DNA of 64,000 bases from Macrostomum lignano (lineage: Eukaryota), in the NCBI GenBank assembly GCA_002269645.1, contig NIVC01000916.1, positions 62,001-126,000 on the forward strand, read 5' to 3'. The translations under genes were made by a program, and so were the position numbers. Numbering within the stretch: position 1 is the first letter of the stretch; every line of letters begins with the position of its first letter. Positions 4,093-25,775 of the stretch are shown one piece after another. The notes beneath the pieces are model-generated. The model was not told the origin of the DNA. It worked only from the letters and a program-made list of their open reading frames with translations, and ran no database searches.

Positions 4093-4945
4093 TTCAACTG
4101 GCCGTCTGGTGACAGGAAATTAGTTTTCTGTCGTATTACTGAGTATGTACTCGCTTTAAGTCTAATGAAATATGGAAAATGTCAGGTTTGAGTCCGATCA
4201 GCAACTTACAATTGAGAGCAAATGATCCAATTAGTGAAACCAGAGCCAGCAGATTAAGACACTATCCAGTGGAAAAGTATTTGTGCTTTTGTATTCTGTC
4301 GAAAAGTGGTAGAGGAATCGTAAAAAGTTTTGCTTCTAGAGCAAGAGCTAGTAGATTTGGCATTTATGGAGTTCTGAGATGAGTCCTCTCTGCGCCAGGG
4401 GCAGAAGAGGCTTCTGCGTTGCGTTTCCCTCAGCATTGGCAGCGTGAAACAGGATGGGAAGAGAAAAAGCCTATTGATTTTTTGTGCCGTTCCAAGCTGA
4501 TTCGCAGCAACTTGTGTTACCCGCTCGCATCACATGGGTTTAGGGAGATGCTTTCGGTCCCTTTGTTACTATCGCAACGGCGGGCTGGAAGGCGGTTGGC
4601 AGAAAACAGAGCTTGTATTTATTATTTATGCAAGCACCGGTGGCTGAGAAAATTTTCAAATCTCTCGCCTTTTCAGGAGCGTGTAGAATGTGGGTTGCTG
4701 CCAGCTCATGGCATCGCCGTCTGTTTCACCACTCTTGTCCCCACAGCTGAAAGGCAGGTGCAGCTCTCTCGCTTGAAATGCTTCCCTTCAGCTTCAATCA
4801 CTTTGCCTTCCATATTCAACAATACGAGCTGGGCTTCTTGTAGAGCTAAATTGAATGCGTCTTCAACCATCAACCAACCGTCTTCAACTCAACTAATAAT
4901 TAATTGAGCCAAGCATAGGCTAGAATTGCTAGTTTGTACCACCAC

Positions 4946-5416
4946 AGTAGTATGAGTTTATGCAACTCTGCCGCACTTGCACTGCGGAGATAGGCGGTAA
5001 TGTAAAAAGGATAGGAGGGCGTAAAAAAAGCCAGCTGAGATAGCCAATGGAAATAAGGGGGCGTGGGGTGGGTGTGATTGGCTAGGCGGCGCGGGTGGTG
5101 AAACGCTTAATGCAACTCTGCCGCACTGGGGGAGGCATGTAGCAAAGCAAAGAATCGGAAGGTTTTTGGAATAGCAGAGTAAACAAATTAAAAACAAAGT
5201 AGGCATAGCGTGGAAACGTCCACCTCAATTTATGCCTGGCCATTGCAACTCCTCGGCGTCCCCCACTGTGCTTATCCCATAGCATGCCTATGCAACTCTG
5301 CCGCACTATTTGTCAGTGCGAAGTGAAATAGATAAGAGAGAGGTTCTGGTCTTCTTGAGTGTCTGCCTCTGGCGCACTGGGATTGATAATAAATGGGCAA
5401 TAAACTTTGTAACGGG
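4946..5416 (+). repeat. Polinton left TIR
   Basis: Imperfect reverse complement of 25876-26386. Starts AGTAGTATGAGTTTATGCAACTCTGCCGCAC. Confidence 0.92.
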
Positions 5417-5508
5417 TGCGGGGCTTGAGTGGAAAGGGTGGGGTTTTGAAATGGAGGCAAGGTTGATAAGCTCTAAAAACAGTTGTTCAACTCTACCGCA
5501 CTTTCACT

Positions 5509-5964
5509 GTGCAGGGACAGAGAGCAGAGCAGGACTCAAGCGAGTTTTCAGAGTCCGATTGTGACTGCTGGTCAGAATCAGAGAGCGAAGATAATTGGTC
5601 TGAATCAAGTTCCGGGGCAGACTACTCGGAGAGTGATTTCGATAGGCTCTCTGAAACCGACACCAACAACACTAAGCAAGATTGTGCTAGTAGGGTTCCA
5701 GTCTGATCGACACCGGCGGTGGTAGTGCAGGAAGCGACACCGGCGGCGGCAGTGCAGGAAGCGACACCGGCGGTGGCAGTGCAGGAAGCGACACCGGCGG
5801 CGGCAGTGCAGGAAGCGACACCGGCGGTGGCAGTGCAGGAAGCGACACCGGCGGCGGCAGTGCAGGAAGCGATACCGGCGGCGGCAGTGCAGGAAGCGAC
5901 ACCGGTGGTGGTAGTGCAGGAAGCGACACCGGTGGCTGTAGTGCAGGAAGGGAACTCAGCTTGA
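5509..5964 (+). pseudogene. Possible Polinton accessory ORF: Ser/Asp/Glu-rich region followed by (VQEATPAA)n repeats, one in-frame TGA
   Basis: ORFs 5509-5706 and 5719-5964 share a frame and are separated by the TGA at 5704-5706. A 24-bp tandem repeat (~10 copies) covers ~5707-5950. Confidence 0.35.
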
Positions 5965-6221
5965 TCGAAAACAACGGTGCCAGCAATATTCATCCTTATC
6001 GTGAGTCAACAACATTTTAATTTCAGCCTTAAGTTATTTAATTCCTGGGTGCATTCGAAGTTTTGTATTTAAAAATCGAGAAATTCAATTTAAGTGTGCT
6101 TATTGAGTCTAAATTTCATTACCATGGAATACCATCCTTTGAGTAACAGAAAATAAGCAAAGCTGTTAATTTTTTTATTTTAGACATTCAGCAAGTAGCA
6201 AGTGCGCACAACGAAACCCTG

Positions 6222-9200
6222 GTGGTGTATCGAATTTCCGTGCCAAGCGATGAACCATGTGATCCATTTGAACTCGCCCGACGGAGCAGGGAAGCAATAC
6301 AGCGAATTGTATTCGAGAAGATGGTGAACCCAAATCTTTTAGTTAGAGCGCAGCTAAAAATGAGCATCCGAATGAACAGAATCCAAGCTGGTGAAGTGGT
6401 GAACCAGGAAGAAAGATGGGTAAGCAGCACTCGTTTGCAACCTGTCAATGACGCCGCTTGCTTTGATGATTGGTGGAAGCAGCAGATTGATGGTTGCGAA
6501 GGCATCATTGAGAAGATGAACACAAATGGCAGTGGTTGGGTGATTGTGCGCGTCAACTGCATCGACTTGAATATTGCGGTTGGTCAAAGACTGCGCTTCT
6601 ACTCTGGTCACGCAAGCAATTTTGAATTACCTCCTCTGCTGAAGGCAAAAAAAGCCGTCATCAATCCTCCTAGTACTGGCTCTGATTGTTTTTTGTATGC
6701 CTGCCTTGCAGTGCTGCATCACGGTGATGAGAATTTGAGGAAAAACCCTCAAAGGCTTTCTACTTACAATGACTGATTGAACGATATCAATCTTTCAGGA
6801 ATTTCCTTACCCGTTGGACTCAACCAGCTAAATCGAATCGAATTATTGAACCCAAGGTTATGTTTTGTAGTTTTTTCTTGGTCAAGCAGTAACGGTGTCA
6901 GTGTGCTGAGGCAGCCACGAATTGAAGTCGCATGCAGTCGCAAAGTAGTTCTTCTCCTACTATTGAACAAATCAGCTAACAAGGATGAAGAGGATAAACA
7001 CTGGTGCGGAATTGTGAGCCTTGATAGGCTACTAAACAGTAAAAGCGGTCTTTACCACAGAAAATGGTGTGAACGCTGCTTGAGCTCTTTCGTAACTGAT
7101 CAGAAGCTAAATGAGCACAGAGAGCAGTGCTATCGCTCTAATGAGTTTGCTGTCAAGGAACGAGTTCCTGCTGAGAAGCGCAGCGTGCTGTCTTTTCAAA
7201 ACTACTTCAAAACTATTGAAGCACCGTTCGCCATCTATGCTGATATTGAAGCATTTAATTCTCCGCTAGGCCCCCACACTCGAGAGGTCATGCATCAGAA
7301 GGTTGAGGAAATGGAGGTCAGCGACAATGAGCAAGTCTGCAGCACACGCAGCAGCAGCAGTCATGTACAAGCAAGACCAGATGAGGGCATGGTAACTGGC
7401 AAAACTGTCTTTATTACCGAACATCTGCCTGCAGCGGGTGGATTTCTACTCGTTGCTCGTGAAGGCATGAAGGGACCACCACTCAAGGATCAAGGTCAGG
7501 TGAAGTTGGTCTCCAGTTCGAATCCATTCGAGTGTATGGAAACGTTTCTTCATGAGCCGGAACGCGTGGCTCGAGAAGTCCATGAATGGAACAGAAGGCA
7601 CAGCTACCAAACGGCTGAAGCAGACACTACTGCTAGTCAAATCTTCAGTGAATCCTCCAACTGTCATTACTGTGATCGACAGTTTACTGACACTAATGAC
7701 AAGCACTATGACCATGATCATCTGACTGGAAAATTCAAAGGCGCCGCATGTTCACGGTGTAACAAATTAGCGCAACTTCGCCGAAGATTTCTGCCGATTT
7801 TCTTCCATAATCTCCGAAATTATGACATGCACCTCCTGTTTTCAACAGCGTTAGGAAATATGAACAACTGGAAGCTGAGTGTCATTCCTCAGACTTCTGA
7901 ACGCTATATGTCTCTTCGAGTAGATTTCCCAATCGCCGAAATCACTCTACCGAAAGGCGAAAAGAAAACAATTTTCTTCACTCTGCAGTTCCTCGATTCA
8001 TTCCAGTTTTTAAACGCGAGTCTAGACAAACTGATTCGCAACTTACCTCTCCAGGACAGAAAATTCACTCAGCAAATGAAAAGCTGCTTTCCAAAGTTAA
8101 CTAATGAAACTTTGTCTATCAAGGGAGTCTTTCCCTATGATTTCGTCAAATCCCCCGCGAATTTGGCAGTGACCGAACTTCCGAGCAGAGAAGAGTTTTT
8201 CAACTCTCTGACAAAGACAGCTTGCAGTGAGGAGAGCTGTGCTCATGCGCGCAAAGCCTGGGAGCAGATCGAAGCAAAAATTTGCACGACTACATGCTTG
8301 CCTACCTGCAGCTTGACATCCGTCAACTTGCCGATGTTTTTCAGAACTTTCGCCGTTTGAGTCTCCATGATGACGGTCTTGACCCGGCCCACTACTTTAC
8401 TACACCAGGTCTATAATTTGATTCCGCGCTGAAATCCGCGCCAACACCGCTCCAGTTGCTCGACGATGCTGAGAAGTACAGACTCTTTGAGCTTGGCATT
8501 CGTGGAGGAATCGTTTCGTTTCATCATGTTACTGCCAGACCAGTCACCAGTCACCAGTCGTCAGATGGTGCAGATTCATCAAGCGCAGCTTCCAATGCCG
8601 AGACAAATTCTTTGCTCCCCGTAGACATGAATAATCTCTACGGGCAAGCGCTGTCCGAAAAACGACCCGTCAGTGACTTTGAGTGGCTTAGTGAAGAAGA
8701 ACTGTGTGAATGGACAGAAGAGAAGCTACTTAAATTGGATGACGATGGTCCAGTTGGCTACCTATTTGAGGTTGATCTGGAATATCCAGATGTAATCCAC
8801 ACGCAGACACAAGATTTGCCATTTGCCCCCGAGAAGGCCGCGCCTAAGCTCGAAGAGTTTCCGCCATTCATGAAACGTCTTTGGGGCGAATTGAACACTC
8901 GCAACGAGCCGTACAAAGGCTGTGTGAAACTTTTACTCACATGTCATGACAAGGAATCCTACGTCGTGTATTTCTGAATTTTGAAGTTCTACTTGCGTCA
9001 CGGTATGCGACTAAAAAAGGTCCGAAGAGCTATTCGATTTTGTCAAGCTGCAATTTTCCAAGCCTACATTGACAGAAACAGCAAAAAGCGCTCAGCGGCT
9101 ACAACGGAATTCGAAAAGACTATTACAAATTGAAGAATAACTCCCTGTTCGGCAAAACGATGGAAAACGTACGGAAGAGGCTCAGTGTTCGAATTTCTAA

Positions 9201-10004
9201 CAACGAGGAGCAGTCCGAAATCTATTCATCGCGTCCGAATCTTAAGGACTTTACGATTGTGACTCAAGACTTAGTCGTTTTTCAATTTTTCAAGACTTCA
9301 GTCACTCTTGACCGCCCAATCTACGTTGGTCAATGTGTTTTAGATGACTCTAAGCTGGCGATGTACCGATTGTACTATGAAAAGCTAAAGCCAACATTTG
9401 AGAATCTTGCTCTCCAACAAGGAGTTTCCCTATGCAGTGGGGACACCGATTCCTTCTTTCTGTGCTTTAAAAACATCGATGTTCAGAGTGCTGTTCTACC
9501 AGAACTCATTCGCCAGCGATTGCTAGATACCTCAAACTTCCCGGCCGACCATCAATTCCGATCCGATGATCTAAAAGCCAAGTTAGGCTGCATAAAGGAC
9601 GAATCTGCAGGCAACCCCCATCGTGAATGGATCCTTTTGAGACCAAAACTATACTCGATGAAGGCCGAGTCTGGAGGGAAGAAGGCAGCCAAAGGTTTTC
9701 AGAAGAGTGTGCTGCGGGCAGAAATCACACACGATGACTACATGCAGGCATTTGCCAGTTTGAAGGAGCTTCGCGTCTTAACACGCAGAATCGCTAGCCG
9801 ACGACACAGAGTAGTCACTTTAGAGAAACAGAAGCGTGCCCTGACTGTATGGGAGGACAAGCGTGCGTGGACTTCCCCAAACCAAGTCTTCCGTATGGGC
9901 ACTTTGCTCTAAGAGACCCCTGCCGCCACAGCTGCCGCCGTTACAATCGAGAAGCACCTCAACTAGCTGCTGATCAGGCTCCCAAGCAAATGAGGATGCA
10001 ATAA
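6222..10004 (+). pseudogene. Protein-primed family B DNA polymerase (pPolB), fragmented
   Basis: Collinear ORFs 6222-6776, 6777-8360, 8456-8977 and 9130-9912. Motifs: HDHDHLTGKFKGAACSRCN (EndoVII/HNH-like insert), FFHNLRNYD, FLDSFQFL, KGVFPY, GIRGG, DMNNLYG, KNNSLFGK, GDTDS, KLYS. A frameshifted SLPYGH tail ends at TAA 10002-10004. Confidence 0.93.
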
Positions 10005-10348
10005 CATACATTTGACTAGTGCGTACTTTGGAATTGAGCATTTGCTCAGCTTTGCATTTTGGTTTTTGGAACGCAATGTACGTGTTGTCCGCATAAATGC
10101 TATTGTACTTTTCTTTAACGTGCCATTGCTTTTTCAAAACTTGCTTAACTTTTATGAGTGTTAGCATTTTCATTTTCTTTCTTTTCCTATGTTCTTTTAA
10201 TATTAGTATCAATTTTCGCTGTGTTGCAGTTTGCTGACAATTTTTTAGCATCTTTTGTAACCAAAAAATAAAACTAGTAAACAAGGCATATTAAAGTTTT
10301 TTTCTGCTAGTTCTTGTCGGAAGATTAAAGACGGATAATTATTGTGCT

Positions 10349-10969
10349 TTATTTTAGTTGCATAAGTGTGTTAACAGAGCGAAACAGGGAAGAACTGTCG
10401 GATTTTAGCATACGCAGAGATTTCGCCCCACTTGGAATATAAGAAGCATTATGAAAAAGCAAGCATTTACAATAGTTAAGTTGACAAACTAAAGCTGAAA
10501 ATGTTTCTGGTTCATACTGTGCTTTGGGCAAAACAAGTTCAGTAAGCGGTAGCGCATTTTGGAGCTTAAAACGTCCATGAGCAGTAATAGTTTTAATTCG
10601 AACACAAATTGTTTGATGAGGCAGCAGTTGATCCGGCACTCTCCGATGCAGCATAGCCACGGAGCGACGGGCAGCCCTTTTGGCGTCTGCGTGGGTCTTG
10701 GCGCCACAGATGCTCAGTTGTCCAGTAGGGTAGAGTAGCAGAGTCACTCTGGGACTCCGCATCCGCTTGATGAGCACCCGGGGCCAGACGGGCCGGTAGA
10801 TCACATGAGCCATGCTGAGAGCCAGTTCCCGTAGAGGCAACTGGGCGCCCCTGCCACCATCCAGTCTCAGATCCACTCCGCCAACCAGATTGGTCACTTT
10901 TAGGGCTGTAGCTGCAGGTGGACTCATTTCGATCCTTGACTTCTTCACCAAATCTTCTGCCAACTTCAC
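10349..10969 (-). CDS. TATA-box-binding protein (TBP)-like protein encoded by the Polinton
   Basis: Two TBP repeats: VTNLVGGVDL...IYRP...KRMRSPRVTLLLYPTGQLSICGAK...AKRAARR and YEPETFSAL...CLLFHN...SGAK. The first ATG is at 10927. Confidence 0.88.
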   Translation of the reverse strand: MKLAEDLVKKSRIEMSPPAATALKVTNLVGGVDLRLDGGRGAQLPLRELALSMAHVIYRPVWPRVLIKRMRSPRVTLLLYPTGQLSICGAKTHADAKRAARRSVAMLHRRVPDQLLPHQTICVRIKTITAHGRFKLQNALPLTELVLPKAQYEPETFSALVCQLNYCKCLLFHNASYIPSGAKSLRMLKSDSSSLFRSVNTLMQLK

Positions 10970-10999
10970 TGCCCCTGTGCCACGGACACTGCTCGCTTC

Positions 11000-11443
11000 T
11001 TAAGTTGATGCAGAACTTTGGCTTAAGCCAACTATAGTGCAGCAATAAATTTCTCACTGCACAGCCAGTATCTGAATCTTCAATCGAGGGTGCTCCCAAA
11101 TCTTCTAGGTTATAAACCTGTCTACCAAGCAGCTCAGTCAGGAAAATAGACTTCCTTTCCCCATTTGTCCAGATCGGACCACTGGCAATCCTCAGAATGT
11201 CTTCCGCCAGTTCCATGTACGGACGGGTTCCATCATTCCACTTAAACTGGTGCAGACTCTTTGATAGCTGTCTGTAGCAAATTCGCATGTCAGGGGAGAC
11301 TCTCTCCCATGGATACGGAGGTGCGTACACATGGTGAGCAATTCGGTAGCTTCCCGCTCTGACCTGAACAACTGCCAACTCTTTCACAACAAATTTTTGC
11401 TTGTGCTGTTGCACGGGAATCCTTGGAATTCAATGTAGTTCAT
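11000..11443 (-). pseudogene. Polinton accessory DnaQ/DEDD-fold-like protein (frameshifted)
   Basis: MNYIEFQGF from ATG 11443, then a frameshift into FVVKELA...PPY...HQFKWNDG...Y...NLEDLG...CAVRN. This pattern resembles small exonuclease-fold ORFs of animal Polintons. The 3' end is approximate. Confidence 0.55.
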
Positions 11444-11486
11444 GATGCAGCTTTCCCTCGAAATTTCGGAGTCAGTTCCCCTTCTT

Positions 11487-12146
11487 TTATACTTTTCTTC
11501 CGGGCAGTTTCAGCCAGGCTGTGTTGCTCCCGTACCCCTTGACTAGACTCGCCTGTTCTTTCTCCAGTTCACTCCCTCTGCTGGTTGCCATTTTCTTTTT
11601 AACTGATTTACCAACAGCGGAAAGCGGAACATTAAGCTTTTTCTGCTGCAGCAAATCGATGAACTCACGCGCACATGGCGAATCCCTCACTGTGTGCTGA
11701 ATCAAGTCCAGTATGTTTGAGGAAGGGATTGACGTGCCCGCGATTTCCACCTCCTCGTTTTCACAAACTCGAATCAGCTCTGGATTGGTGGATACGATCG
11801 TCCATAGACTGCGAGCCCTGGTTTTGAATTTCTGTGGCACCGACTTGCTGATCTTCTCTTCCCAGGTGCTCATCTGTGGTGTCTCTGTTTTCATCAACTT
11901 GGCTTCAGTATTGCGTGCTCCTTCTTTTCCAGCGTGCTTGCGTTTGGCCAGCAAACTTTGCATTGCACTTTGATACATGGTGGTTTTCACATCTTCTGGA
12001 CAATCTTCGGCATACAAGATATCATCGCATTTCTTCTGAGCCTGCTTCAAGTTAGCGTCAGTGCTATTCTCATTCGGCTTCAAATTCTGCATCAACATCT
12101 CATACTCTGCTTTAGGAATCAGAACCATTTCTGAAAATTTGTTCAT
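11487..12146 (-). CDS. Conserved Polinton protein (PZ-like), 219 aa
   Basis: N-terminal MVLIP, ILYAED..DVK..MYQ, VPQKFKTRA..LW and E.EI.G..IPSSNILDLI motifs. It lies downstream of the ATPase/PW genes. Confidence 0.6.
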   Translation of the reverse strand: MNKFSEMVLIPKAEYEMLMQNLKPNENSTDANLKQAQKKCDDILYAEDCPEDVKTTMYQSAMQSLLAKRKHAGKEGARNTEAKLMKTETPQMSTWEEKISKSVPQKFKTRARSLWTIVSTNPELIRVCENEEVEIAGTSIPSSNILDLIQHTVRDSPCAREFIDLLQQKKLNVPLSAVGKSVKKKMATSRGSELEKEQASLVKGYGSNTAWLKLPGRKV

Positions 12147-12450
12147 TTTGCTTCTTCTTCTTTACCAGCTTAAGCAGAATCAGGAGTATTTTAATGAAGC
12201 CAACCTTCAACAAGTTTGTCTTTCTTCTTTTGTGAGTAATTTTTCGAATTATCTCTTTTGACTTTGCAAGAACAGCTTTTTCATCGAGCGAAAACGATAT
12301 ATTGTTTTGTATGAGATTATGGCAGGCCTCGACAAGAAAACAACGCACTTCTTTTGGACAATTTTTTATCAACAGCCGCTTGAAGCGCACGGTAAATTTA
12401 GGTGACGCAAGAACCGCAAAAAGACTTGCATGTGAATCAAGCACTTCCAT
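12112..12450 (-). CDS. Small basic Polinton protein (PW-like)
   Basis: RLLIKN...EACHNLIQNNISF...K..L.K.K..IRK...GFIKILL pattern. The likely start is MEVLDSH at 12450. Confidence 0.55.
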   Translation of the reverse strand: MEVLDSHASLFAVLASPKFTVRFKRLLIKNCPKEVRCFLVEACHNLIQNNISFSLDEKAVLAKSKEIIRKITHKRRKTNLLKVGFIKILLILLKLVKKKKQNEQIFRNGSDS

Positions 12451-12719
12451 AGCGATGAAAACAATAGCTGATAAACAAAGAAGCTTCACTTTCTTAAGCA
12501 AATACAAGATGGGGTCGCTGGTTGGGCAGAATTCTGGCCCGCACTCGCAGCTCATCGGGAGTTGATCGGTGAAAGTCTAGGAACAGGTAAGCTCCCCTGT
12601 TCTGCGCGGTCACGTGCTTGAACACTGACAGCAGAAAGCCGGGCTTCTCTGTAAAGCACTGCCTGCCCAGTGCTGCAATCTGCAGCTGGTCTCTGGGGTT
12701 TTTCAAGATAGCTAAGTAC

Positions 12720-14863
12720 CTTCGCGATCCGCTCTACCGTCCGCCAAAGCGGCCACCGCGGCGCTACTACCGCGCACTCAGAGCCACCGATACGCAGCGT
12801 CGCTTTGCTAGCGCCTTTAACACCGCGCTGGGCGACAAGCGTGGAAGTGCCGAGTATGCGGAAGTGTGCGCTGCAGTCAGAACCGCCGTGGAGCAAGCAG
12901 TCCCGATGATGCAACCGGCTCAACCTGGGCAGCCGGTCTGGCAGGACGACCCTGCGATTCAGGCAGCGAGGGAAGATCTGGAGAGGCTCCGCTTGAGCAG
13001 GCGACCAACCCGCGAGGCAGAGGCAGCTCTGGCGGCTGTCTACCTGCAGCGCCAACAAGCGGCTGTCGATGACGCCATTCAGGCTGTCTCTGCCGCTGGG
13101 CCCGATGCCAGAGGGCGCGTGGCCTGGTCCGCCATCAACGCTCTGACGGGGCGAAAGCGGCGCAATCCGCTGAACCTGGCTGTGACACTCCGGACGAGCG
13201 CAGGAACGAGCTGCGCGAGTTCTTCGCCACCATCGTTAACGCGCCGCCACCCCCGCTGCCAGACAGTCTGACGCTGCCGCCGGAGACGCCGTTGCCGGCA
13301 GAGGAGAGTTTCAGCGTAGCCCCAGTCAACGCAGCCGACGTTGTCAAGCTCGCCCAGCAGTCACCGGGCGGGAAAGCGCTGGGTCCGGAAGAGGTGCCCA
13401 TCGAGGCGCTGCGCATCCCCTGTGTGGCCGCTGAGGTCGCCAGAGTGATGAACCGCGTGCTCTTCGGTGAGGCGGCGCCCAACGAATGGACCACGGCGCA
13501 CATCGTCGCTATTCCAAAGAAGCCGGGCACCACTAGGCTTGAAGACCATCGAGGCATCTGCCTTCAGTCCTGTGCAGCGCAGCTGTTCAACCGGATGCTG
13601 CTTTCGCGGTTGCAGCCCGTGCTGGATCCGTACCTGCGCCCAGAGCAGAACGGGTTCCGGCCCCATCGCGGCACAGTGGCGCAGATCCTGGCTCTTCGCC
13701 GAGTCATCGAGGAGGCGCGATTCGCCAGTCGATCCTGATTCTAATCTTTATTGATTTCATTCGACTCGGTTGTCAGAGCCGTGCTTCCAATGGTGCTCCG
13801 TGCGTACAACGTGCCTAAGCAGCTGATCTCCGCTATCATGGCGATGTACCGTGATACGACAGCTGCTGTGACAACACCGGACGGCCTATCGGACTCCTTT
13901 GAGACATCCTCCGGAGTACTTCAGGGAGATACGCTGGCGCCGTTCCTGTTCGTCCTGGTGCTTGACTGGGTGCTGCGGACTGCTCTTCCTACCGACGACG
14001 ATGGTTTTCTGCTGCAGCGACGCGTGGGTCGACGTCAACCGGAGAAGCGGCTCAGCGTGCTTGGCTACGCCGACGACCTCGCCCTGCTGTCCTCGACCGT
14101 CGAGGGCGCCCAACGGCAGCTGGACAGGCTAGTTGCCGTTGCGGCGAGTGTCGGCCTGGTGGTCAACACGCAGAAGACCGTTGTGCTCTGCGTGCCGGAC
14201 GACATCGAGGCTGCAATATTCTGCCGAGGCGCTGACGGGCAGGCGACCGAACTCCCGCGATGTCAGCAGTTCGTCTACCTCGGCGGTCTGGTTCCAGAAG
14301 CTCGCGAGGACCTGCGACGCCGCCGCGGGCTTGCCTGGGCTGCCTTTCGTTCTGTGAGGGCAGTCCTGCAGTCCGAGGCCCTACCGGACCGCCAGAGGGC
14401 GGCACTGTTCCAGGCGGTAATCGAGACCGTCCTGTTGTACAACGCCGAGACCTGGACGCTGACGGACTCACTCGAACAGCAAGTCGATGCGGCGCACGCT
14501 GGCCTGCTGCGCGCCGCCTTCAACATCGGCGTCGAGCGAGTCACCAACGCGGCACTCTATCGCCGCGCTGGCCTGCCACGTCCAAGTGATCTACTGCACC
14601 GTCGGCGACTCCAGCTCGCAGGCCATCTCATCCGCGCCGAGTCGTACTGCCCACAGCTGGTGCAGGAGGTGCTGCTGCTCACGCTGCAGGCACCCTACCG
14701 GCGAGGTCAAGCGCGAACTCGGCGTTATGTCGACTGTCAGCTGGCTGACGCCGGCGCCCCGGACACTGCCGGTGGCGCGGCCTTTGTTCGCGCCCAAGCC
14801 ATGAAGCGCGCCCTGTGACGCAGACTTTTGCCATCCTGACAGCGTATTTTGTTGTTGTTGTTG
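12720..14863 (+). mobile_element. 5'-truncated RTE-clade non-LTR retrotransposon
   Basis: RT motifs (RGICLQS, EQNGFRP.R, GVLQGDTLAP, YADD, FVYLG) occur in frameshifted ORFs 13292-13738 and 13751-14818. It has a (TTG)n tail and TSD TAAGTAC at 12713-12719 and 14864-14870. Confidence 0.9.
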
Positions 14864-15095
14864 TAAGTACATTACATTTAAGCTCATTGTTCGCGACTCT
14901 TTTCCCTTGAAAAATATATTCTGAGTCAGCATCACCAAGAAGCACGGCAAGTGATGTGCGATTCCTGTGAAAAAATTTTGCATTGAAGCAGAGTTTGAAG
15001 TTTCCTCTATTAAGTCATCGAAAACAACCAGGTCATAGGGCCTAAGTGCTGCCTCGATGTTGGTGGGAAATCCCTGGCGCAGCTGCACACCTAGT

Positions 15096-15472
15096 GTGAC
15101 GACGTCGTTAGCATCTTAACTTTTTAGTTTCTATCTGAGTTTTTATTACTTAAAATTATTGTAGTTGATTAATTTTCAGGTTCCCCAGCTATTAATTTAA
15201 TGTAATTTATTTAGAAAAAAATGTACTTCATGTTTTATTTATTTAAGTCCAAGTTATTATTACTTTTTTGATAGACATCTTAGGTTTAAATGAATCGGAT
15301 TTCCCCGCCAATTTAAATGTTGCCTCGAGCTCGTTTTTGTACTCTCCTCAACGCGGCGTTTTGTCTCGTACCCTGCGTGTCAACACTACTAGTAATTGAA
15401 CTAGCTAACTAATAAATAAATAACTAATAATTAATTAATCGCTAACTACATCTCGAACTCGCTCACGTCATA
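15096..15472 (+). mobile_element. Solo LTR, 377 bp
   Basis: Ends TGTGACG...CGTCATA (one mismatch from a perfect 7-bp inverted repeat). 5-bp TSD CCTAG at 15091-15095 and 15473-15477. AATAAA lies near 15411. Confidence 0.75.
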
Positions 15473-15698
15473 CCTAGGCTGCTCAGTTCTGCATGGCCTG
15501 CCTGTGAGATCCCATAGTACCACAGAACTCTGCCAGGCTTCACATCAAACATGACGTCTCTGTACTGGATCAGGTGTTTGACAAAGGTTGTTTTTCCTGC
15601 ATTGGTGGGCCCGCAGACAATCATGCAGCTTCCCTGCCTGAGGCGGATATCGTAGCAAACTCGCTTTTCTGCCATGTCTAATGCATAAATATTAGAAA

Positions 15699-16208
15699 TC
15701 ACGCACATCTTTTTCTTAAGTTGGCTTCAAACCTCTGTAAGATTCTATCATTCAAATGATTTTTTTCATTAGCATGCAAATGCTTCAAAATCCCCTCAAA
15801 TGATCGATTGAACAGAAACTTTTGATAAGCAAAATAGATGCAAAACATTCCGCATTTATTAGAGTTAGCACATTGAAACCTGTTTTTATTGCTTCGGAGC
15901 CAAAAGCCAGTTGTTTTAATCTCCCGAAACAAATTATAAACCACAGATAAAATTTCAGGTTCCCAGCCGAGGGAGTTGAACAGCTCAATGCAATTTCCTT
16001 GTCCAACATAGCACACCACCCAATGACCAAATGAACCATTGTGCTGTAGTAGAACAAAAACAAACTTATTTTCGAGGGAAATTGATCGATATTTTCTTTT
16101 TAGACTCAAAGGCAAAAAATTTTTATAGCGTGAATGTAAAGTAATGATGAGAAATTTTCGGCAAGACAAAAATTTTCTGGCGAGATTAAGTAGTTGAATT
16201 GCGTCCAT
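15699..16208 (-). CDS. Adenain-like cysteine protease
   Basis: GHWVV (catalytic His), ELFNSLG, and FQCANSNKCGMFCIYF (Gln/Cys) as in adenovirus-type C5 proteases. Confidence 0.9.
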   Translation of the reverse strand: MDAIQLLNLARKFLSCRKFLIITLHSRYKNFLPLSLKRKYRSISLENKFVFVLLQHNGSFGHWVVCYVGQGNCIELFNSLGWEPEILSVVYNLFREIKTTGFWLRSNKNRFQCANSNKCGMFCIYFAYQKFLFNRSFEGILKHLHANEKNHLNDRILQRFEANLRKRCA

Positions 16209-17012
16209 GCCAATTAAGAGGAATAGTCCAGCAAAAGCTCCCGGTGCTTGGTGACCTCAATCAGCGAGTCATACAGGCACAGAGAGATCAGGGACACCGC
16301 TTCGTCCAGAGCCTGTCGGAAGCGAATCTCCAGCCGCAGGTTGCCCTCCTTCTGTCCCTACCACAGAGCCGCTCCCTCTGGTGTGAGATCGAATGCAAAC
16401 ACCGTGTTGTTGTTGGAGAAGAGCTGGTAGGGGATCCACGGGACCGAATTGCTTGCAGATTGACAGCTTTTCATGTGGTGCAAGTATTCTCTTACAAAGG
16501 AATTGTTTTCAGGTGTGAAGGCGCCGTGGCACACGGTCTCTCCGTGCCAACCGAGCCAACCGGCTGAGGTTGAAGCTCTGGAACTGGAACGGATTCGCGT
16601 GATGATGTGTAGTGACCTTCGCGAACTTTCTTTAGCGTATGAATAATAGAAATTTCCCGATATGGTAATATTAAATATTCTACGCTTTTCCTGAAATTTC
16701 CATCAAGTTCACAATATTATTTCTACACCGTTTATGCATAGTTAATTATTAATTTACATGAATTCTTGTACTGTAACACTTAGTCACTATTTGAGCAATA
16801 CGTACATACAACTTAGTTTTGTTATAAGGATGCACGTTTTTCCAGAACTTTCCGGAAACCCCAATTTCATCTATAAATACACGAAACCAGAAATGCAATT
16901 ATTTTAAGTCCTTTTCAATCACTCGATTGACTCAAATAACAGAGCATTCAATTGCTAAAGTCTTTACAACTGGTCCGGTGAGGCGGATCAACGCAAATAC
17001 ATCGCGATAACA

Positions 17013-18029
17013 ATGTCAACTCCTAGCGACTCCAGTGCGTCGAACCTACCGCCTCCTCCACCGACGGAGCAACCTCCGTTACCGGTCGTCAGTCAGCCCA
17101 GCGGCGTTGCTTCACCACCGGCGATAAGCCCGCCTAGCACCACCGCCGCGGCACCGTCAATTAGCCAGCCCAGCGTCCTTTTCTCGCCGGCTGCGATGCC
17201 GCCTTACCAGCAGGCTGTGGCTGCCGTCAGCGTCAAAGCCCCGCCGTTCTATCGCAACAACCCAGACGCTTGGTTCCAGACGCTGGAATCTCAGTTTAAG
17301 TTAGCCCGCATCACATCCGAGGAAACAAAGTACCATCACCTCGTGTCCAACCTGCCAGAAGACGTCGCATCTGTTCTCCTGTCGTCTGAGACTCCTGCCA
17401 ACTACACTCTACTGAAGACCAGCGTCTGCAACATGATGCAGAAGAGTAAGCAGGAGAAGATTAACGAACTTCTGGCGACATCGGACCTCGGCGGCGACAA
17501 GCCCTCGATTTTTCTACAACGCCTGACAGCCAAGATGTCGCAATGCGGGATACAACCAGCCAGCTGCCCGGACATGGTCAAAGCCACGCTGTTGCGCTGC
17601 CTACCGAGCGAATTCCGCCTGGCCTTGTCTGGATTCCAGGAACAGACTCCAGCACAGCTCGCCTCCATCGCCGACTCGATGTTGGCCGTCCAGAATTCCT
17701 TCGGTCGGGTCAACGCAGCGCAACCAGAGCTCATCGCGGCTGTACCAGCAAAACCAACCGGTGACTTCAACAAGGCTCGGAAAACTAGAAGCAACGGGAT
17801 GAAGCCGTTCAAAGCAGGTCAACGCCCCGTCATCTGCCGCGCTCATATCTTCTACGGCCAACAAGCGCGTACCTGCCGCCACTGGTGCCAGTTTCCAAAG
17901 GCACCCAGTCACTTCCCGCGCGTCCTTACGAACAACGAGGCGACGCCAGCGCAATCGCGATCATCGTCACCAACGCGAAACAGCCCAACTCCGGGAAACT
18001 GGACGACGCTGCCCAACACGCCGCAGTGA
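17013..18029 (+). CDS. gag: Gag
   Basis: [26 protein letters not shown] and CHCC box. Confidence 0.9.
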
Positions 18030-18055
18030 GCAGCGTCAGCCGAGGAAATGCGGCG
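17993..18055 (+). promoter_or_regulatory. -1 ribosomal frameshift signal (slippery G GGA AAC + H-type pseudoknot)
   Basis: GGGAAAC at 17993-17999 in the gag frame. Stem 1 pairs 18005-18012 with 18030-18037, and stem 2 pairs 18019-18025 with 18049-18055. Confidence 0.8.
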
Positions 18056-21000
18056 ACGAAGCACTTCCTGGTGGTGGACCTCACATTCAACGGTCAATGT
18101 CTGTCCTTCCTCGTCGACACAGGAGCCGCTGTGTCCATCATTCCGCCAAAGTATCTCCACCAGGCTCTTCAGGCTACCGGTTACAGATTGACTACCGCCA
18201 CCGGCACGTCCATTCCGGTTTCTGGAGAGATCACTCTCACCGTCTCCATCCGAGGACTTCGTCGATCCTTTCAGTGGACCTTCCTCGTCGCCGCCGTCAT
18301 CCAGCCGATCCTTGGTTATGACTTTCTATCCCGGTACGGTCTTTTAGTTGACTGCAAGGCACGACAACTGGTGGATCCAGAAACTACGCTGCACACGCAG
18401 ACTCTACCTGTCACCAGCCTGCAGCTTGACAGCTTCGCCGTCTCCTTGGCATATCCCGAGCATTGCGATCCGAGAGTGCAACAGCTCATCGATCGTTTTG
18501 CCGACACCTTCTCGTACGTCGAAGGTGGTCGCCTGCCTAGAGCTGAGGAGGTTAAACACAACACGAAGCACCACATCATCACCAACGAGCATCCTCCGAC
18601 ACATGCCAAAGCGCGACAGCTACATCCCGAGAAGCTTGCCATAGCCAAGGACGAGTTCCAGCAGCTGATCGACGCAGGATACCTTCGGCCTTCCGCCAGC
18701 AACTGGGCATCAGCTCTTCATATGGTCCCCAAGAAGGACAACGGTGTACCTAACGGAAAATGGCGACCCTGTGGTGATTACCGGCAGCTCAACAAGTTGA
18801 CCAAACCGGACAACTATCCTATTCCGCACATCCAGTGCTTCACAAGGAGTCTTCACGGTGCAAGGATCTTCTCGAAGCTGGACCTCGTACGAGCGTACCA
18901 CCAGATTCCGATCGCCGATGAAGATATTCCGAAGACCGCCATTATTACGCCGTTCGGTCTCTACGAATGGACCCGCATGCCGTTCGGGCTGCGGAACGCA
19001 GCGCAGACATTCCAGCGCTTCATCGACAGCGTCCTGCGGGGTCTTCCATATGCGATAGCCTACGTTGACGACCTCCTGATCGCATCGCCAAACGAGGAGG
19101 ATCACCTGCGACACCTGGAATCAGTCCTGACTCGTCTATCGGAGCACGGACTCAAGGTACAGCTCAGCAAGTGCACCTTCATGCAGCCGGAGGTAACCTT
19201 CCTGGGACATCAGGTGTCAGCCGAGGGCATCAGGCCGCTTGCCTCCAAGGTCGACACCATCCGGCAGTGGCCGATTCCCAAGGATGCCAACGCACTACGT
19301 AGGTTCATCGGTGTCATCGGCTTCTACCGCCGTTTCATCCCGAAATTCGCTGACATCGCCGCGCCTCTGCAGGATCTCGTTACTACATCTCTGCAGTCTC
19401 CACGATCCTACAGATGGAACTCGGTTCATCAAGAAGCCTTCGACAAGCTCAAGGCTGCCTTGGCAGAGCGGTTGCTGTTGCAGCACCCGGATCCGAGTTG
19501 CGACGCCTATAGCCTTGTCACGGATGCTTCATCTTACAGCGTCGGCGCAGCTCTTCATCAAACGACTGGCAATGTCACGACGCCCATCGGCCTGTTCAGC
19601 AAGAAGCTGACAGCAACGCAGCAAAAATACTCAGCTTTCGACAGGGAACTCCTCGCAGTGTATCTCGCCGTTCTGCATTTCCGGAGCCTGATCGAGGGAC
19701 GTGAAGTAACGGTTTTCACGGACCACAAGCCCCTAGCTCAGGCGTTCCACAGCAACAGCGGCGGAACTTCCGACCGGAATCAGCGATACCTGAGTGTCAT
19801 CACTGAATACGTCACGGACATCGCCTACATCCGCGGCTCCGACAACATTGTCGCTGATGCGCTCTCCCGGCTCGACGAAGCGGACATCAGCCAGGTCAAC
19901 AACGTCCAGCAGCTGTCACCCATAGACATTCCGGCCATCGCAGACGAGCAGAAGCGGGAGCAGCTGCTGTCACTCGATGGTTGCCGACCCTATCCGGTGG
20001 ACGGTCAACGAACCCTGCTCTGCGAGACCTCAACAAACTATCCGCGGCCGGTCGTCCCTGAGTCGCTGCGACGCCGGTACTACAGCACTTTCACGACCTG
20101 GGACACTTCGGCTTCCGCAAGACCGCCCGCCTCATCACGTCACGCTACTTCTGGCCAAATATGCGTGGCGACATTAAGGCCTACTGCCGAGCCTGTGAGT
20201 CCTGCCAGCGCAACAAAATTAGCCGCCACACGGTATCTGGAAGCTCGGAATTCGACCTGCCTTCGAATAGATTCGAGACCGTGCACATTGACATCGTCGG
20301 GCCTTTGCCAGTTCCGGAACGCCAGCACGACGTCTCATGCGGCTTGTCTCCTCGGTATCTTCTCACCATGATAGACCGGGGTACCAGCTGGATCGAAGCA
20401 GCGCCGATCGAGTCCATCACAGCCCAGAGCGTCGCCTCCGCCTTCCTAGCAACCTGGATCTCACGATTCGGGGTGCCCCTCTACATCGTGACTGATCGCG
20501 GGGCACAGTTCGAAGCGGACCTCTTCAACATCCTGGCTGCCAGCGTTGGTTTCTACCGCCTCCGTACGACTGCCTACCATCCGCAGACCAACGGCAAAAT
20601 CGAGCGCGCCCATCGAACGCTCAAGAACATCCTGAAGGTTCGTGGACAGTCCTGGCTTGACAATCTACCACTTGCACTACTCGCCATGCACATCTCTCCC
20701 GATGAGAACGGCGTCAGCCCCTTCACGCGTCTCACGGGGGAGCACCCGATGCTTCCACGAGTCCTGGTTCCCGACGACGTCAATCCTCAGTCTGTTCGGC
20801 TGCGCATGGACGACATCACCGACGGTACGCGATCTTCGCCTTCCACGACCAAGCTGTACATCCCTGCCGACCTCTGGACAGCAGAAAAGGTCTGGCTCCG
20901 TGTGGATCGCGTTCGCAAGCCTCTAGAAGCACCTTATCAGGGGCCCTATCCTGTCATCCGTCGGACAGACAAGTTTTTCATCATCGAGGCCCAGCCTGGT

Positions 21001-21234
21001 CGGCAGGAGGCCGTTTCGATCGACCGTCTGAAACCATTCCGCACGGCCAGTGGCACCATCAGTTCAAGGCTACCCGCCAAGAAACAGACGTCCACGGAAT
21101 CTCGCCAATGTTCCCAGCCGACAACTGTGCTCAACCAGCCGGATGCAGCCGCTAAGGGAGACAGCACCCCAGTGATCACCCGGAGTGGCCGGCATGTGCG
21201 ATTCAAGAAGTGCAATGACTATATGTATTTTTGA
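17993..21234 (+). CDS. pol: Pol (PR-RT-RH-IN), -1 frame relative to gag, one frameshift near 20075
   Basis: LVDTGA protease, [10 protein letters not shown] / MPFGLRNA / YVDD RT, TDAS / TDHKPL RNase H, and HIDIVG / TDRG / [11 protein letters not shown] / GPY integrase. Confidence 0.92.
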
Positions 21235-22368
21235 CCACTGACTGCTCTTTATCTAGGCCATCATCTGCTAGCTGTCCCACCTGATAGTTTTTTCCCCGGG
21301 ACTCCGTCTTCCGCGGGGGGGACTATTGTAGTGACCTTCGCGAACTTTCTTTAGCGTATGAATAATAGAAATTTCCCGATATGGTAATATTAAATATTCT
21401 ACGCTTTTCCTGAAATTTCCATCAAGTTCACAATATTATTTCTACACCGTTTATGCATAGTTAATTATTAATTTACAGATGACCGTTGAATGCTCGGTGG
21501 CTCACGAAGGCCAGCATGATGAACTTCGGCAATTTTCCATGAGTGAATCCTTCAATGTTTTTAGATTGAATGCCCTGGGGTAGGATGAAGTTCTGCATTT
21601 CAGTTCGCTCGATGGGATACAGTGCATTTTGGTTTGTCAGCCCCTGCTCGTGAGCCAGGCTGATGTGAGGCACCACTTTGACTCGGCGAAGATGCAGAAT
21701 GCTGTGAGAGATTTCCATGCGATAAGCCGCGTTGTTTAAATTCGGGGTTCTTCTGATGGCAAAGGCCCCATCGCTGGGGACCAGTTTGATGTGCAAGTGC
21801 AGATTGTTTAGCAGAAACACTGGGCACTGGAAAACATCGCTGAAGAGGGGCCCCGCATACTCCATCCATCGGGATTCCCTGTGGCTCTCCGTGTGCTCTT
21901 CAGCTGCAGAGTCCGGCTCCAGGAAGCCAGCTGGGTAAAGTTTTAGTTGCTGGGCATCAGATGAGCTCATTAGTGCTTTAAAGTACGCATGGTAGGGATA
22001 GAGCTGGTCTCCACCAGACACCACTCGCTGGTTAATGCTCACAATTACATCTGAGAAGGCTGTAGACAAAACAAAGTTTTCTGGGTGCACGTCACTGTCT
22101 CTGCGCTCGGTGATGATGCCATCTCCATCTCGAACATCCTCCCTCAGCAAACCCCCATCCAGTCTCACAAGGCGGCAGCGAATATAAAGAAAAGTATTAA
22201 GCAGATCTGTGTATTCATCGGCAGATTGGTGGCAGTCAAATTCAATGGGGGAGTTTGCAGTAATGGAATTAACTGGGTGAATATCAACATAAGTAGCTTT
22301 TTCAATGCAGGTTTGTAGAACAGGCGTCTTAAATAAATCAAGTCTGGGATTGAATCCGTAAGCCATGT

Positions 22369-22757
22369 CTATGACAGATAGTCGAGCACGCGTTTCACAG
22401 TTTTCTTGCTGACTTTTCGCTTTCGCTTTCCTCCGCCTGCTGCATTCTTCTTTGCTTTCGTCTTCCTATTCTTAAGCTTTTTCCTACTAGCCTTGCTCGG
22501 ATTTCTTTCATTGCACCTCTTATTGGTGCGATCTCTACCAGTTGCCTTTCGGGTGTACTTCTTCTTCTTCAATCGTTTCGGACTTGCTTTAGTATTTCTT
22601 TTGCGCCTGACATTGCTATGCGTTGAGAATGATGATGTAGCCGCTGGAGGAGGCTGGTATGTCATGATCCCCGGAAAGCTCCCACAGCCATAGAGTGCAG
22701 GCTTTTCGTGTCCTGTCCTCACCCCGAATATTGCTGGATCAGCTGCTGGTAGTTCAT
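22369..22757 (-). pseudogene. Basic core/genome-condensing protein-like ORF (stops and frameshift)
   Basis: Lies between penton and MCP. The ATG at 22757 overlaps the penton TGA. The C-terminus is very Lys/Arg-rich, ending GGGKRKRK...VLDYLS. Confidence 0.6.
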
Positions 22758-23580
22758 TGAATGCGTTTCTCCCGAATCTGAACTGTGAGCAGAACAGGGC
22801 TGAGTGTCTGGGCAATCAGTGGGCAACCATAGATGTCACGCAGCTGAACTCGAATGCTGTGAAGAAGACTGATTCGTTGAATCGGGAAGAATATTGTTTT
22901 CTTAAATATTTTTGTTTGATAGTTGCCCATTCAATGCCGACTTTCATTCCAACTGTTCTCAACAGGGAGCCCCAGTTGCAATTAGTTGACTCAACGACAC
23001 TGCAGTGTACATTGATTAAGCTGGTGCGCGGGCAGCCAATGCAGTGCTCGGACACGCGGCTCCCTGGCTGGATTTTCACAGCCTGGTTTCCAAATCCCAG
23101 CCAATGCAGAATTTTGCTAGATGGAAGAAACAGCTCTGCTCTCGCAGTGTTGTTGTGCACCACAGTTCGTGAGTTGCGGATTTCGAACTTCATACCAAAT
23201 TCCCTGTTGCCACTACGCCCCATCAGGCCGGACTCATCAGCCTCCATCTCAAATTCCCTGTCACTCATCGCATCAAAGAACAGCGAATCAGAGTTGGCCA
23301 GCAGCTCATTCAGGCGCTCCACCAGCTCCTCCACTCTAGCAAAGCGTCCGGGTTGAAGAACCAGGGCCTCATGCTCTCTTCCATCTGAGACAGTGAAGCA
23401 GTAAGGCTCGTCAACATTGAACCATGCAGCAGGCAGATGGATTTCAGCCAGACCTGCCTCATAGTCCACATTTCGATCCAAGTAAATAGGTGAAGGCAGG
23501 TAAAAATTAAAGTCACTAGGAGTACCTTCAGCATGCTCACTGTTAATCAAAATAGTTCGCATTATAAAGATAAACTTCAT
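22754..23580 (-). pseudogene. Minor capsid (penton, single jelly-roll) protein, frameshift near 22920
   Basis: GTPSDFNFYLPSPIYL...YEAGLAEIHLPAAWFN at the N-terminus and INVHCSVVE..LLRTV. The alternative-frame tail reads FPIQ...IRVQLRDIYG...LTVQIR. Confidence 0.82.
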
Positions 23581-23599
23581 GATGAGGGATGTGCCAAAG

Positions 23600-24626
23600 C
23601 TAAACCTTTCTTAAGTCTTTTTCATCCACCCAGCCAGTCGAGTCGTAGCCCGCCCACTTCACCAGATAGCGAATTTTTCCCTTCCGCTTCTCCGTTTTCA
23701 GAATCTTCCCAATCACATACAGCCGCTGTGAGTCGCTGCATGTCTTTAATCTTGTACATGTAGGGATAACGTTTTGGGGCTCTGCTCACCACGGTGTACA
23801 CCTCCTCACTCCAGCTCGCTTTGTATCCCTTTTTGAATAGCCGTGGAGCATTGGAAATTCTCACTGACTGGTTTTCAGCGAATTTAGGCTTCTTTAATTT
23901 TTCTAGAGTCTCGGCTGCTTTTCCGTCGTACAGGTTCATCCACACTTCAGATTCATTCTCTTTGCAGACACTAGTGGGTGCCATTTTGATGCTTCTGTGG
24001 TAATTATTGTTGTAAGATTTTACCAGCTTAGGCAGCACATCAAGCCAGTGCAGTGTGCTCTTGTAGGTGAAGTAGCGCCACATTCTACTTTTCAGAGTCC
24101 GATTCCATCGCTCAATGACAGCCGCCTTCTGCTCGCTGTTAGTTGGGAAAGCCAGAATCCCTCTGTCAATGCAGTATTGACGGAAAGTGGAGTTGATAAA
24201 TTCCTTCCCCTGATCTGTGCGAACTGTGCGTGGCTGGCGCTTTGAACTTCTCAGTATGCTCTCGAATGCTGACTTCACTTCTGCAGCAGATTTATTTTTC
24301 AGTGCCTTGGCCCAAGCACACTTTGACAGTACGTCAATACATGTGAGAATATATTTGTAGCCTTTATTATACTTTGCGAATGGAATCATTTCTACCAAGT
24401 CAAGTTCCCACTGATCATCGATAGCCCGCACTATGATTGGGGCCCTTGGATATCGCCTTCTAGCTGGCTTGTGTAGGGTGTGCACTGGCTGCTCACTGAG
24501 CCACTGATCTATGCTCTTAGTGGATATGGGATCTCCTCTTCTCCTAACTTCATTCAACAGTTTGGAAGCACTAGAAAAACTAGTAGCCGGCTGTTGTGGG
24601 TCAAAGTAAATTTTTTCCATTCTCAA
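23600..24626 (-). CDS. Retroviral-type (c-)integrase with frameshifted C-terminal chromodomain
   Basis: IYFDP, QWELDL, TDQGKEF and IERWNRTLK form the DDE core. The alternative-frame tail KIRYLVKWAGYDSTGWVDEKDL ends at 23600. Confidence 0.93.
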
Positions 24627-24985
24627 ATGAAAAAGAACCAGATGTACACAGGTATGTTTTTCTTAAGAGCAACGATTGGCGTTTTAAAAGACATTTTTTA
24701 TTCCAATATTAAACTCATACAATGTACACGAGTTATTTTTTAACTCGGGGACTGCGAACAGTTGATGATCTTGAAAAGAAGATTGCAGGAAATAATAGCA
24801 TTGAGTAGTGCAAATAAGTATAAACTGCATGCATTTAAGTATAAATTTGTTTTGTTAACACTTGAATAAATAAAACTAAATGGTTACGACAATTGTCAAA
24901 ACTTAACTTAGCTGAATAAAATTAGACAAAATCAAACCAAACTGAATTATCCATTGAGTCTCATCAGTCTCATCCAACCTCCAGC

Positions 24986-25684: not shown

Positions 25685-25767
25685 AGTTCACACAAAATCA
25701 CTACAAAAAACTTTTGAAATCGAATTCAAGAAAAAATAGATTTACCGTTGAATTTAAAAATCGGGGG

Positions 25768-25775
25768 CTTATATA
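25768..25775 (-). promoter_or_regulatory. Candidate TATA box (TATATAAG) upstream of the PC4-like gene
   Basis: About 85 nt 5' of the ATG at 25684, flanked by GC-rich bases. Confidence 0.45.

Follow-up and report, generated by a model that had tools for sequence, protein, structure and literature searches.

A TATA-binding-protein-like gene carried by Polintons of Macrostomum lignano and its predicted role as a late-gene promoter factor

Polintons are among the most widespread virus-like elements of animal genomes, and the timing of their gene expression and the activation of their capsid programme are open questions. The closest described systems for the gene reported here are the vTBPs of beta- and gammaherpesviruses (BcRF1 of EBV, ORF24 of KSHV and MHV68, and UL87 of CMV), which excerpts from two papers connect with a TATT late-promoter word (PMC4893493, PMC12529657). 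According to the latter source, herpesvirus ORF24, namely that of KSHV, is without the glutamates that bind TFIIB (PMC12529657). In the relevant portion of another source, these stirrup glutamates (C.L3.2 and C.L3.4) are identified as TFIIB contacts, and the first of them is about 40% conserved in large viruses, which bring their own TFIIB (PMC7221094). Adintoviruses and MELD viruses belong to the same element class as the Polintons described below, and TBP labels appear in two MELD-virus figure legends in a section on non-animal datasets (Starrett et al., PMC8502044; bioRxiv 10.1101/697771). The portions of that study covered here contain no description of a TBP family, promoter word or mechanism; TBP is not listed in the section on accessory genes of animal adintoviruses, nor does it occur in one supplement (PMC8502044; 10.1101/697771). 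TBP and TATA terms were absent or irrelevant in the main-text portions of PMC8097293, PMC11131425, PMC12220804, 10.64898/2026.10.13.758929 and 10.64898/2026.06.19.733378, and the terms PC4 and polinton gave irrelevant results in part of PMC11662393. In the openly accessible literature covered here, mostly main texts, neither a TBP family nor a promoter word was found described for animal Polintons.

The window examined in this study is a stretch of 64,000 nucleotides from the genome of the flatworm Macrostomum lignano (contig NIVC01000916.1), and its features are listed in Table 1. It holds a Polinton with long TIRs, AG-type termini, a 6-bp TSD, a protein-primed family B polymerase (pPolB) and an RVE integrase (INT). 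The polymerase lies on the plus strand, while the PC4-like gene, INT, the putative minor capsid gene (mCP), a small basic ORF, the major capsid gene (MCP), the protease and the packaging ATPase follow one another on the minus strand, in a block that also holds two conserved ORFs, a DEDD-like ORF and the TBP-like gene (TBPL). The ATPase is homologous to a Pox_A32-positive protein. The capsid ORFs are conserved and stand in the expected place with no Pfam match, and the names MCP and mCP, with the jelly-roll folds that they imply, are presumed from synteny and general knowledge. The polymerase matches Pfam DNA_pol_B_2 at 1e-3 in this copy and at 2e-12 in a lineage B copy, and PC4 scores better elsewhere than in the window, with 3e-5 for lineage B and values as low as 1e-16 for lineage C. 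Since pPolB is spread over four frames and both the ATPase region and MCP carry insertions, this copy of the element is dead. The Gypsy element within the capsid gene has LTRs that are 100% identical and long open gag and pol frames, and it was inserted very recently. A word, CAACTCT[GA]CCGCA, recurs in or near both TIRs (at 4963, 5113, 5293 and 5488 on the plus strand and at 25990, 26217 and 26369 on the minus strand) and is a possible candidate binding site for a replication or integration protein. Outside the Polinton, large tandem arrays (26700-28300, 43800-45000, 46900-48000, 49600-50900 and 57850-63700; periods 21, 33, 20, 40, 17, 28 and 23) give rise to spurious long ORFs in the window.

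Table 1. Coordinates of the Polinton, its genes, nested insertions and upstream words in the window
Feature	Position	Strand	Remarks
Left 6-bp TSD CACCAC	4940..4945	+	
Polinton/Maverick element, inactive copy	4946..26386		AGTAGT termini, TIRs, 6-bp TSD
Left TIR	4946..5417	+	contains repeats of word CAACTCTGCCGCA
Protein-primed family B polymerase with EndoVII-like domain	6147..9912	+	broken, four frames
TBPL, 192 aa, two saddle repeats, lineage A	10349..10927	-	
DEDD/Maelstrom-like ORF directly upstream of TBPL	10593..11429	-	frame open across TBPL N-lobe
Word CTTAAGAA	10997..11004	-	77 nt 5' of TBPL ATG, within upstream ORF
Conserved ORF, 219 aa, function not assigned	11487..12146	-	present in lineages A, B, D, E
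Conserved helical ORF, no TFIIB likeness	12112..12555	-	
Word CTTAAGAA	12491..12498	-	48 nt 5' of in-frame ATG used by sisters, conserved ~110-aa ORF
Nested non-LTR (RT-bearing) retroelement	12720..14863	+	missing from closest sister
A32-type packaging ATPase remnant	14864..15660	-	374-bp insert at 15095-15468 (approximate ends)
Adenain-like protease	15699..16208	-	Pfam Peptidase_C5 5.5e-4, below cut-off
Word CTTAAGAA	15713..15720	-	before packaging ATPase; 42-58 nt from ATG in sisters
Major capsid gene	16358..22366	-	split by Gypsy element; name presumed from synteny and general knowledge
Nested Gypsy LTR element	16608..21477	+	identical 151-bp LTRs
Word CTTAAGAA	22469..22476	-	110 nt 5' of major capsid gene
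Putative minor capsid gene	22816..23580	-	name presumed from synteny and general knowledge
Word TTTAAGAA	22899..22906	-	before small basic (core-like) ORF; 149 nt from ATG in sisters
Word CTTAAGAA	23608..23615	-	35 nt 5' of putative mCP, in last integrase codons
RVE integrase	23622..24620	-	Pfam rve 4e-13
Word CTTAAGAA	24660..24667	-	47 nt 5' of integrase gene
PC4-like gene	24986..25684	-	Pfam PC4 0.006
Canonical TATA box TATATAAG	25768..25775	-	91 nt 5' of PC4-like gene
Right TIR	25875..26386	-	
Right 6-bp TSD CACCAC	26387..26392	+	

The first-pass annotation of this DNA had described an uninterrupted TBP-like ORF within the TIR-bounded element, on the same strand as the virion genes, and this description was borne out. 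It had placed the start at 10969, which proved to be a GTG in a non-conserved upstream open stretch; the first ATG lies at 10927, and in two sister subfamilies a stop codon stands directly 5' of it. Both of the saddle repeats that it had reported are present (Pfam PF00352 in two stretches, E 1.5e-18), and the PDB sequence matches are all TBPs (E 8e-13 to 4e-10), with archaeal TBPs at the top. An AF2 model built from a 14-row alignment (pLDDT 85) gave a TM score of 0.80 to archaeal TBP 1mp9 in Foldseek and a Z score of 18.7 to TBP in VIA (171 residues superposed at an rmsd of 2.0 A), against 8.3 for the next unrelated fold; the structural comparison with TBP that had been suggested as a check thus returned a TBP fold for the predicted model. 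The ORF at 10349-10927 is confirmed as a two-lobed TBP-fold protein. It shares about 28-30% identity with the host TBP, and a database protein named for Macrostomum lignano is one residue off the TBPL of one subfamily. The absence of introns and of an N-terminal extension, once offered as a distinction from host TBP, holds for TBPL as a single open frame but does not discriminate, since the host TBP is itself a single open frame of 218 aa with a short N-terminus. The genes for host TBP and a TRF2-like protein, both single open frames, are found on three contigs each, and TFIIB is also on three contigs.

The saddle of TBPL combines kept and altered positions (yeast numbering, which equals host numbering plus 23; alignment of 28 element rows), and the roles of single residues are those that we take them to have in TBP unless a source is given. 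The intercalating aromatics had been read as W, Y, F and F. Y116, F190 and F207 are indeed in register, but in an ungapped alignment F99 is replaced by proline and the tryptophan falls at R98, so that the four positions F99/F116/F190/F207 read P, Y, F, F. The first-repeat asparagine was correctly noted as kept, N69 and V71 both being conserved, while in the second repeat N159 and V161 are both threonine; of the paired central asparagines (N69/N159), one is thus retained and the other lost. Within lineage A, N69, V71, L114, Y116, G119, G125, E186, P187, E188, F190, L205, F207 and G216 are conserved, and the changes are F99 to P (with W at 98), V122 to S, T124 to C, and N159 and V161 to T. Across all five lineages N159 and V161 are T or S (N159 is T in A, B, C and E and S or T in D), and position 99 is P in A, L in B and F or Y in C, while the A and B rows and almost every C row retain aromatics at 116 and 207 and the N69/V71 pair. 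The stirrup glutamates E186 and E188 occur in all A and B rows, and residue 188 is acidic in all 28 element rows.

The DEDD/Maelstrom-like frame continues over the N-lobe of TBPL (10593-10927) with no stop in nine of nine distinct lineage A and B ORFs (the window plus loci L035, L037, L041, L043, L046, L048, L050 and L017), where 3.3-4.6 stops were expected (P 0.002-0.025 each), which suggests that the overlapping frame is under selection. The DEDD-like protein itself (10983-11450, minus strand) falls into unnamed clusters made up chiefly of arthropod proteins, Maelstrom being a weak lead (0.86), and may have the piRNA pathway as its target. In lineages A, B and C, TBP is accompanied by a PC4-like gene that frequently has two PC4 domains (L053, L054, L057, L060, L066, L067). 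In lineage D a deoxynucleoside kinase adjoins TBPL and in one subfamily forms a fused open frame with it, and a dUTPase is also carried (L082:6293-7015, L082:1026-1601, L086:6372-7790). None of the 15 genomic matches to the TFIIB domain PF00382 (23 of 23 candidates scored) lay on contigs listed for TBPL. The two conserved ORFs of the block bore no likeness to host TFIIB, and may yet have a remote cyclin fold; PDB profile searches with three ORFs neighbouring TBPL reached E 0.04 at best.

TBPL is a repeated component of the Polintons of this genome. At least 152 matches were found (150 of 231 candidates scored), in subfamilies of about 97, 80, 78, 77 and 73% identity, and 95 of the best 98 are free of stops; these copy numbers are inflated, because single-copy host genes each appear on three contigs, and copies within a subfamily are not independent counts. 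In nine of the nine flanks fetched, which include lineage B, TBPL lies downstream of a DEDD-like ORF inside a Polinton; lineage B has 36% identity and a different gene order. The TSDs differ among the three sister insertions checked. Other Polintons were located with an outgroup ATPase search of the genome (150 of 332 candidates scored), and six of the ten ATPase loci fetched held TBP-like ORFs that have diverged much further and make up lineages D and E, with 83 and 90 genome matches respectively. Lineage D is assigned to TBP by Pfam (2e-7) and a broad HMM, its single-sequence fold being poor (pLDDT 46), and lineage E, which has no Pfam match, by the broad HMM (E 4e-6) and alignment. The genome-wide search for TBP ORFs in sister Polintons that had been proposed as a check was positive, with a TBP-like match within 13 kb of the ATPase in 139 of 150 loci (A 64, D 40, B 20, E 15). 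Among the 11 loci without a nearby TBPL, nine were inspected and none was a complete TBP-less element that could serve as an intact control: three were truncated or decayed, three ran off contig ends, one was internally deleted, and two lost homology upstream of pol. The last two, in which no TIR was detected, may be truncated or truly TBP-less. One lineage E unit (L093-L094, G000:C175) spans about 10.4 kb between 814-bp TIRs and holds TBPL, INT, MCP and ATPase with no polymerase match, and is possibly a many-copy non-autonomous family.

Beyond this genome, a profile search of 1.8 billion representatives gave eight matches below 1e-30, seven from the TBPL clade and one ordinary plant TBP. Lineage C is a neighbouring family of unnamed TBPs of ~170 aa in about 40 clusters. 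A large set of short divergent TBPs in the same search proved archaeal and was rejected. A metagenome pattern scan returned 29 loci, of which 24 encode a lineage C-type TBP and five were dropped as chance matches. In 20 of the 24 contigs a Polinton INT, MCP or ATPase adjoins the TBP gene; the other four are shorter than 1.8 kb, and in two of these PC4 is the neighbour. One contig (L056) holds pPolB, ATPase, INT, TBP and MCP all together. At 70% identity, the 17 metagenome contigs that were taken further make up 12 groups. No relative was found in the first metagenome scan, or in scans of viral contigs apart from one giant-virus TBP (L051).

On the sense strand of every lineage a TATA-like word stands 5' of the genes for virion proteins and integrase, in most cases by 33-110 nt. 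Lineages A, B and C use TAAGA(A), lineage D uses TATAAGCA and lineage E TATAAATA. In lineage A, [CT][AT]TAAGAA precedes TBPL, the DEDD-like ORF, the ~110-aa ORF, ATPase, MCP, the basic ORF, mCP and INT, and among 6-mers TAAGAA ranks first, being found in 7 of the 12 gene families (for each of the six elements the binomial p lies between 8e-7 and 2e-4, post hoc values for a word chosen after looking). No word was found near the protease gene or the 219-aa ORF. A canonical TATA box stands before PC4 in all five lineage A copies scanned. In lineage B the TAAGA word is found before the DEDD-like ORF, ATPase, MCP and mCP, and TBPL lies behind a canonical TATAAAAG. Sense and antisense counts of TAAGA are 77 and 18 in A, 18 and 0 in B, 116 and 30 in C, and 21 and 16 in D, while those of TAAG[CT] are 85 and 35 in D and 47 and 88 in A; TATAAGC occurs in 19 of 78 upstream windows of lineage D. 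Lineage C provided an independent test, in which TAAGA was upstream of INT in 10 of 13 cases, MCP in 5 of 5, ATPase in 0 of 2 and TBP in 1 of 17; for INT and MCP together (15 of 18) versus TBP, Fisher's p is 4e-6, and shuffles gave a mean of 4.6, with 0 of 500 reaching 15. In the one lineage E element examined, TATAAATA, a canonical TATA, recurs seven times, always on the same strand, and four of these copies precede ORFs. Leu-Arg pairs lying 20-120 nt before an ATG are written TTA-AGA in 12 of 21 cases versus 4 of 129 elsewhere (about 2% expected), an excess which indicates that the word fixes codon choice where it falls inside the preceding gene. Distances from word to ATG accumulate from 32-33 nt upward, at 33-56 in lineage A (25 of 49) and at 32-40 in lineage C (17 of 53, with 10 of 53 sites closer than 32 nt). 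They fit TATA geometry with short leaders and also an initiator with 33-56-nt leaders; no initiator-like YR peak was found at a fixed distance 3' of the word.

On this analysis, TBPL is probably a late-gene promoter factor that works like the herpesvirus vTBPs, with its binding and timing predicted. We infer that TBPL would bind the TATA-like word of its own lineage (YTTAAGAA in lineage A), that the word would act as a TATA-type element with the start site about 30 nt downstream, and that host TFIIB would be the partner, recruited with RNA polymerase II via the kept stirrup. The same reading gives an early/late cascade: canonical TATA boxes would let host TBP read PC4, and in lineage B TBPL as well, at an early stage, after which TBPL would turn on the capsid, packaging and integrase genes as a late block. 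In lineage A, where the TBPL gene itself lies behind the word, positive feedback would be expected. The first-pass annotation had offered two ideas, an element-specific preinitiation complex and a decoy against host TBP. The former gains from the lineage-specific words and the kept TFIIB glutamates and may well apply, while the latter explains the words poorly.

If TBPL were a decoy or competitor, host TBP/TFIID would read the words and TBPL would soak up TFIIB, Mot1 or NC2, or block host promoters, freeing machinery or damping host defence. This seems unlikely, although the acidic TFIIB stirrup is the best-kept surface of TBPL and the DNA-facing N159, V161, F99, V122 and T124 are changed. Host TBP may be able to read the words, since PDB titles record crystal structures of wild-type TBP with the TATA variants G(-26) and T(-30), indicating that single variants are tolerated, and since the lineage E word is itself canonical. 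It also counts against the reading of words by TBPL that A, B and C share TAAGA despite widely differing DNA-facing residues. However, a decoy leaves unexplained why the word changes with the TBPL lineage and why the TBP genes of lineage C are without the word that INT and MCP have, and the retention of aromatics 116 and 207 and of N69/V71 speaks against it.

Baculovirus late promoters have the form (A/G/T)TAAG, with transcription by the viral polymerase starting inside TAAG, and virophages carry copies of the late promoters used by their giant viruses. The TAAG core could thus be a late initiator of baculovirus type, read by the polymerase of a helper large DNA virus, with TBPL doing some other job. 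In lineages A, B and C, TAAG mostly has A, G or T in front of it, the 33-56-nt distances would also suit a late 5' UTR, and no initiator signal was seen downstream of the word. Nevertheless, the bases that follow TAAG differ from lineage to lineage inside a single host genome (A versus C/T), no word of lineage E contains TAAG, and the TBP gene would be left unexplained, all of which makes this explanation improbable. A genome search for LEF-8 gave no match, its controls being equally silent.

Slightly less probable still is a role outside transcription, in which TBPL would bend or mark element DNA for replication (with PC4 as a single-strand binder), packaging or integration near host promoters, leaving the words to host TBP. 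TBPL often adjoins the PC4-like gene, the integrase or the dNK/dUTPase genes, as such a role might lead one to expect, but the words stand before genes on the sense strand rather than within the TIRs, the stirrup for TFIIB has been conserved, and PC4 is also a coactivator of RNA polymerase II.

In an LG+G4 tree of 28 rows, restricted to lineages A, B and C among the element proteins, these three come together as a single clade (98/94), next to eukaryotic TBP/TRF2 (98/97) and archaeal TBP. AU tests rejected a placement of A and B with host TBP or with host TRF2 (p 0.029 and 0.024, for groups named after earlier trees were seen), so that the phylogeny against TBP and TRF2 suggested at the outset set TBPL apart from both. 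A quick tree of 60 rows joined all five lineages (SH-aLRT 93) with a long-branch warning, and D and E may have been joined to the others through long-branch attraction. Values of dN/dS were 0.14-0.48 in 14 pairs between subfamilies (0.07-0.25 for the N-lobe) and 0.14-0.69 in three near-identical pairs, which have too few changes to judge; this comparison among element copies, likewise suggested, argues against neutral evolution, and by these sequence comparisons TBPL is under purifying selection. The subfamilies have the N-lobe and virion block in common and differ in the C-lobe and pol, and dS in the C-lobe is many times that in the N-lobe. Identity to four of the five sister subfamilies ends at 10400-10575 of the window, inside the second lobe of TBPL, and this breakpoint and the excess of C-lobe dS point to a module swap that runs through the second lobe and replaces pol too, the frames of the chimeric TBPLs staying open. 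A recent one-off retrocopy of host TBP or TRF2, riding neutrally in one element, has practically no chance of being correct: its one favourable point, the lack of introns, is common to the host gene, and it is ruled out by the 152 genome matches and presence of TBPL in four lineages here and a fifth elsewhere, the differing sister TSDs, the low identity to host TBP, the AU tests and dN/dS well below 1.

A one-gene promoter-recognition factor with a readable word would make Polinton gene timing testable, and the word would offer a sequence rule for calling early versus late genes in any such element. If the proposed role is true, this would be the most compact means known by which a nuclear DNA virus privatises RNA polymerase II, and a switch for the capsid programme in elements whose virions have not been seen. 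The five natural TBP variants and three words are also a ready series for the study of how TBP saddle specificity changes.

Compared to cellular and archaeal TBP (PF00352) and TRF2/TBPL1, the element protein has the same two-lobed saddle (rmsd 2 A), N69/V71, an aromatic residue at 116, F190, F207 and the YEPE stirrup, but it shares only about 22-30% identity with them, has T or S at N159/V161 and P at F99 in lineage A, and is distinguished from cellular TBP by a first-loop insertion, a separate clade and carriage on a mobile element. The TBP-like proteins of NCLDV, mirusviruses and poxviruses are likewise viral two-lobed TBP folds (BFVD matches at E 7e-11 and weaker); in the part of the source that covers them, these viruses mostly co-encode TFIIB and have a variable stirrup (PMC7221094). 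The Polintons studied here, in contrast, retain the acidic stirrup, and neither a TFIIB gene nor one for RNA polymerase was seen in them.

The herpesvirus vTBP is a large multidomain protein, whereas TBPL is a bare saddle of ~170-200 aa. TBPL also keeps the TFIIB-binding glutamates that ORF24 lacks, its words are TAAGA, TATAAGC or TATAAATA rather than TATT, and, in a comparison short of profile searches, the elements showed no homologue of any of the other five subunits of the vPIC. In both systems, a virus without an RNA polymerase of its own encodes a TBP fold, and structural genes lie behind a variant TATA and early genes behind a canonical one. TBPL thus works like a herpesvirus vTBP in the scheme proposed here and is not a member of that family. 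There is perhaps an even chance that the TBP-fold late factor is an old, overlooked core gene in a large part of animal Polintons, in which co-evolved pairs of TBP and word plug into host TFIIB and RNA polymerase II; it would then be the missing switch of the capsid programme and a one-protein counterpart of the six-protein late complex of herpesviruses.
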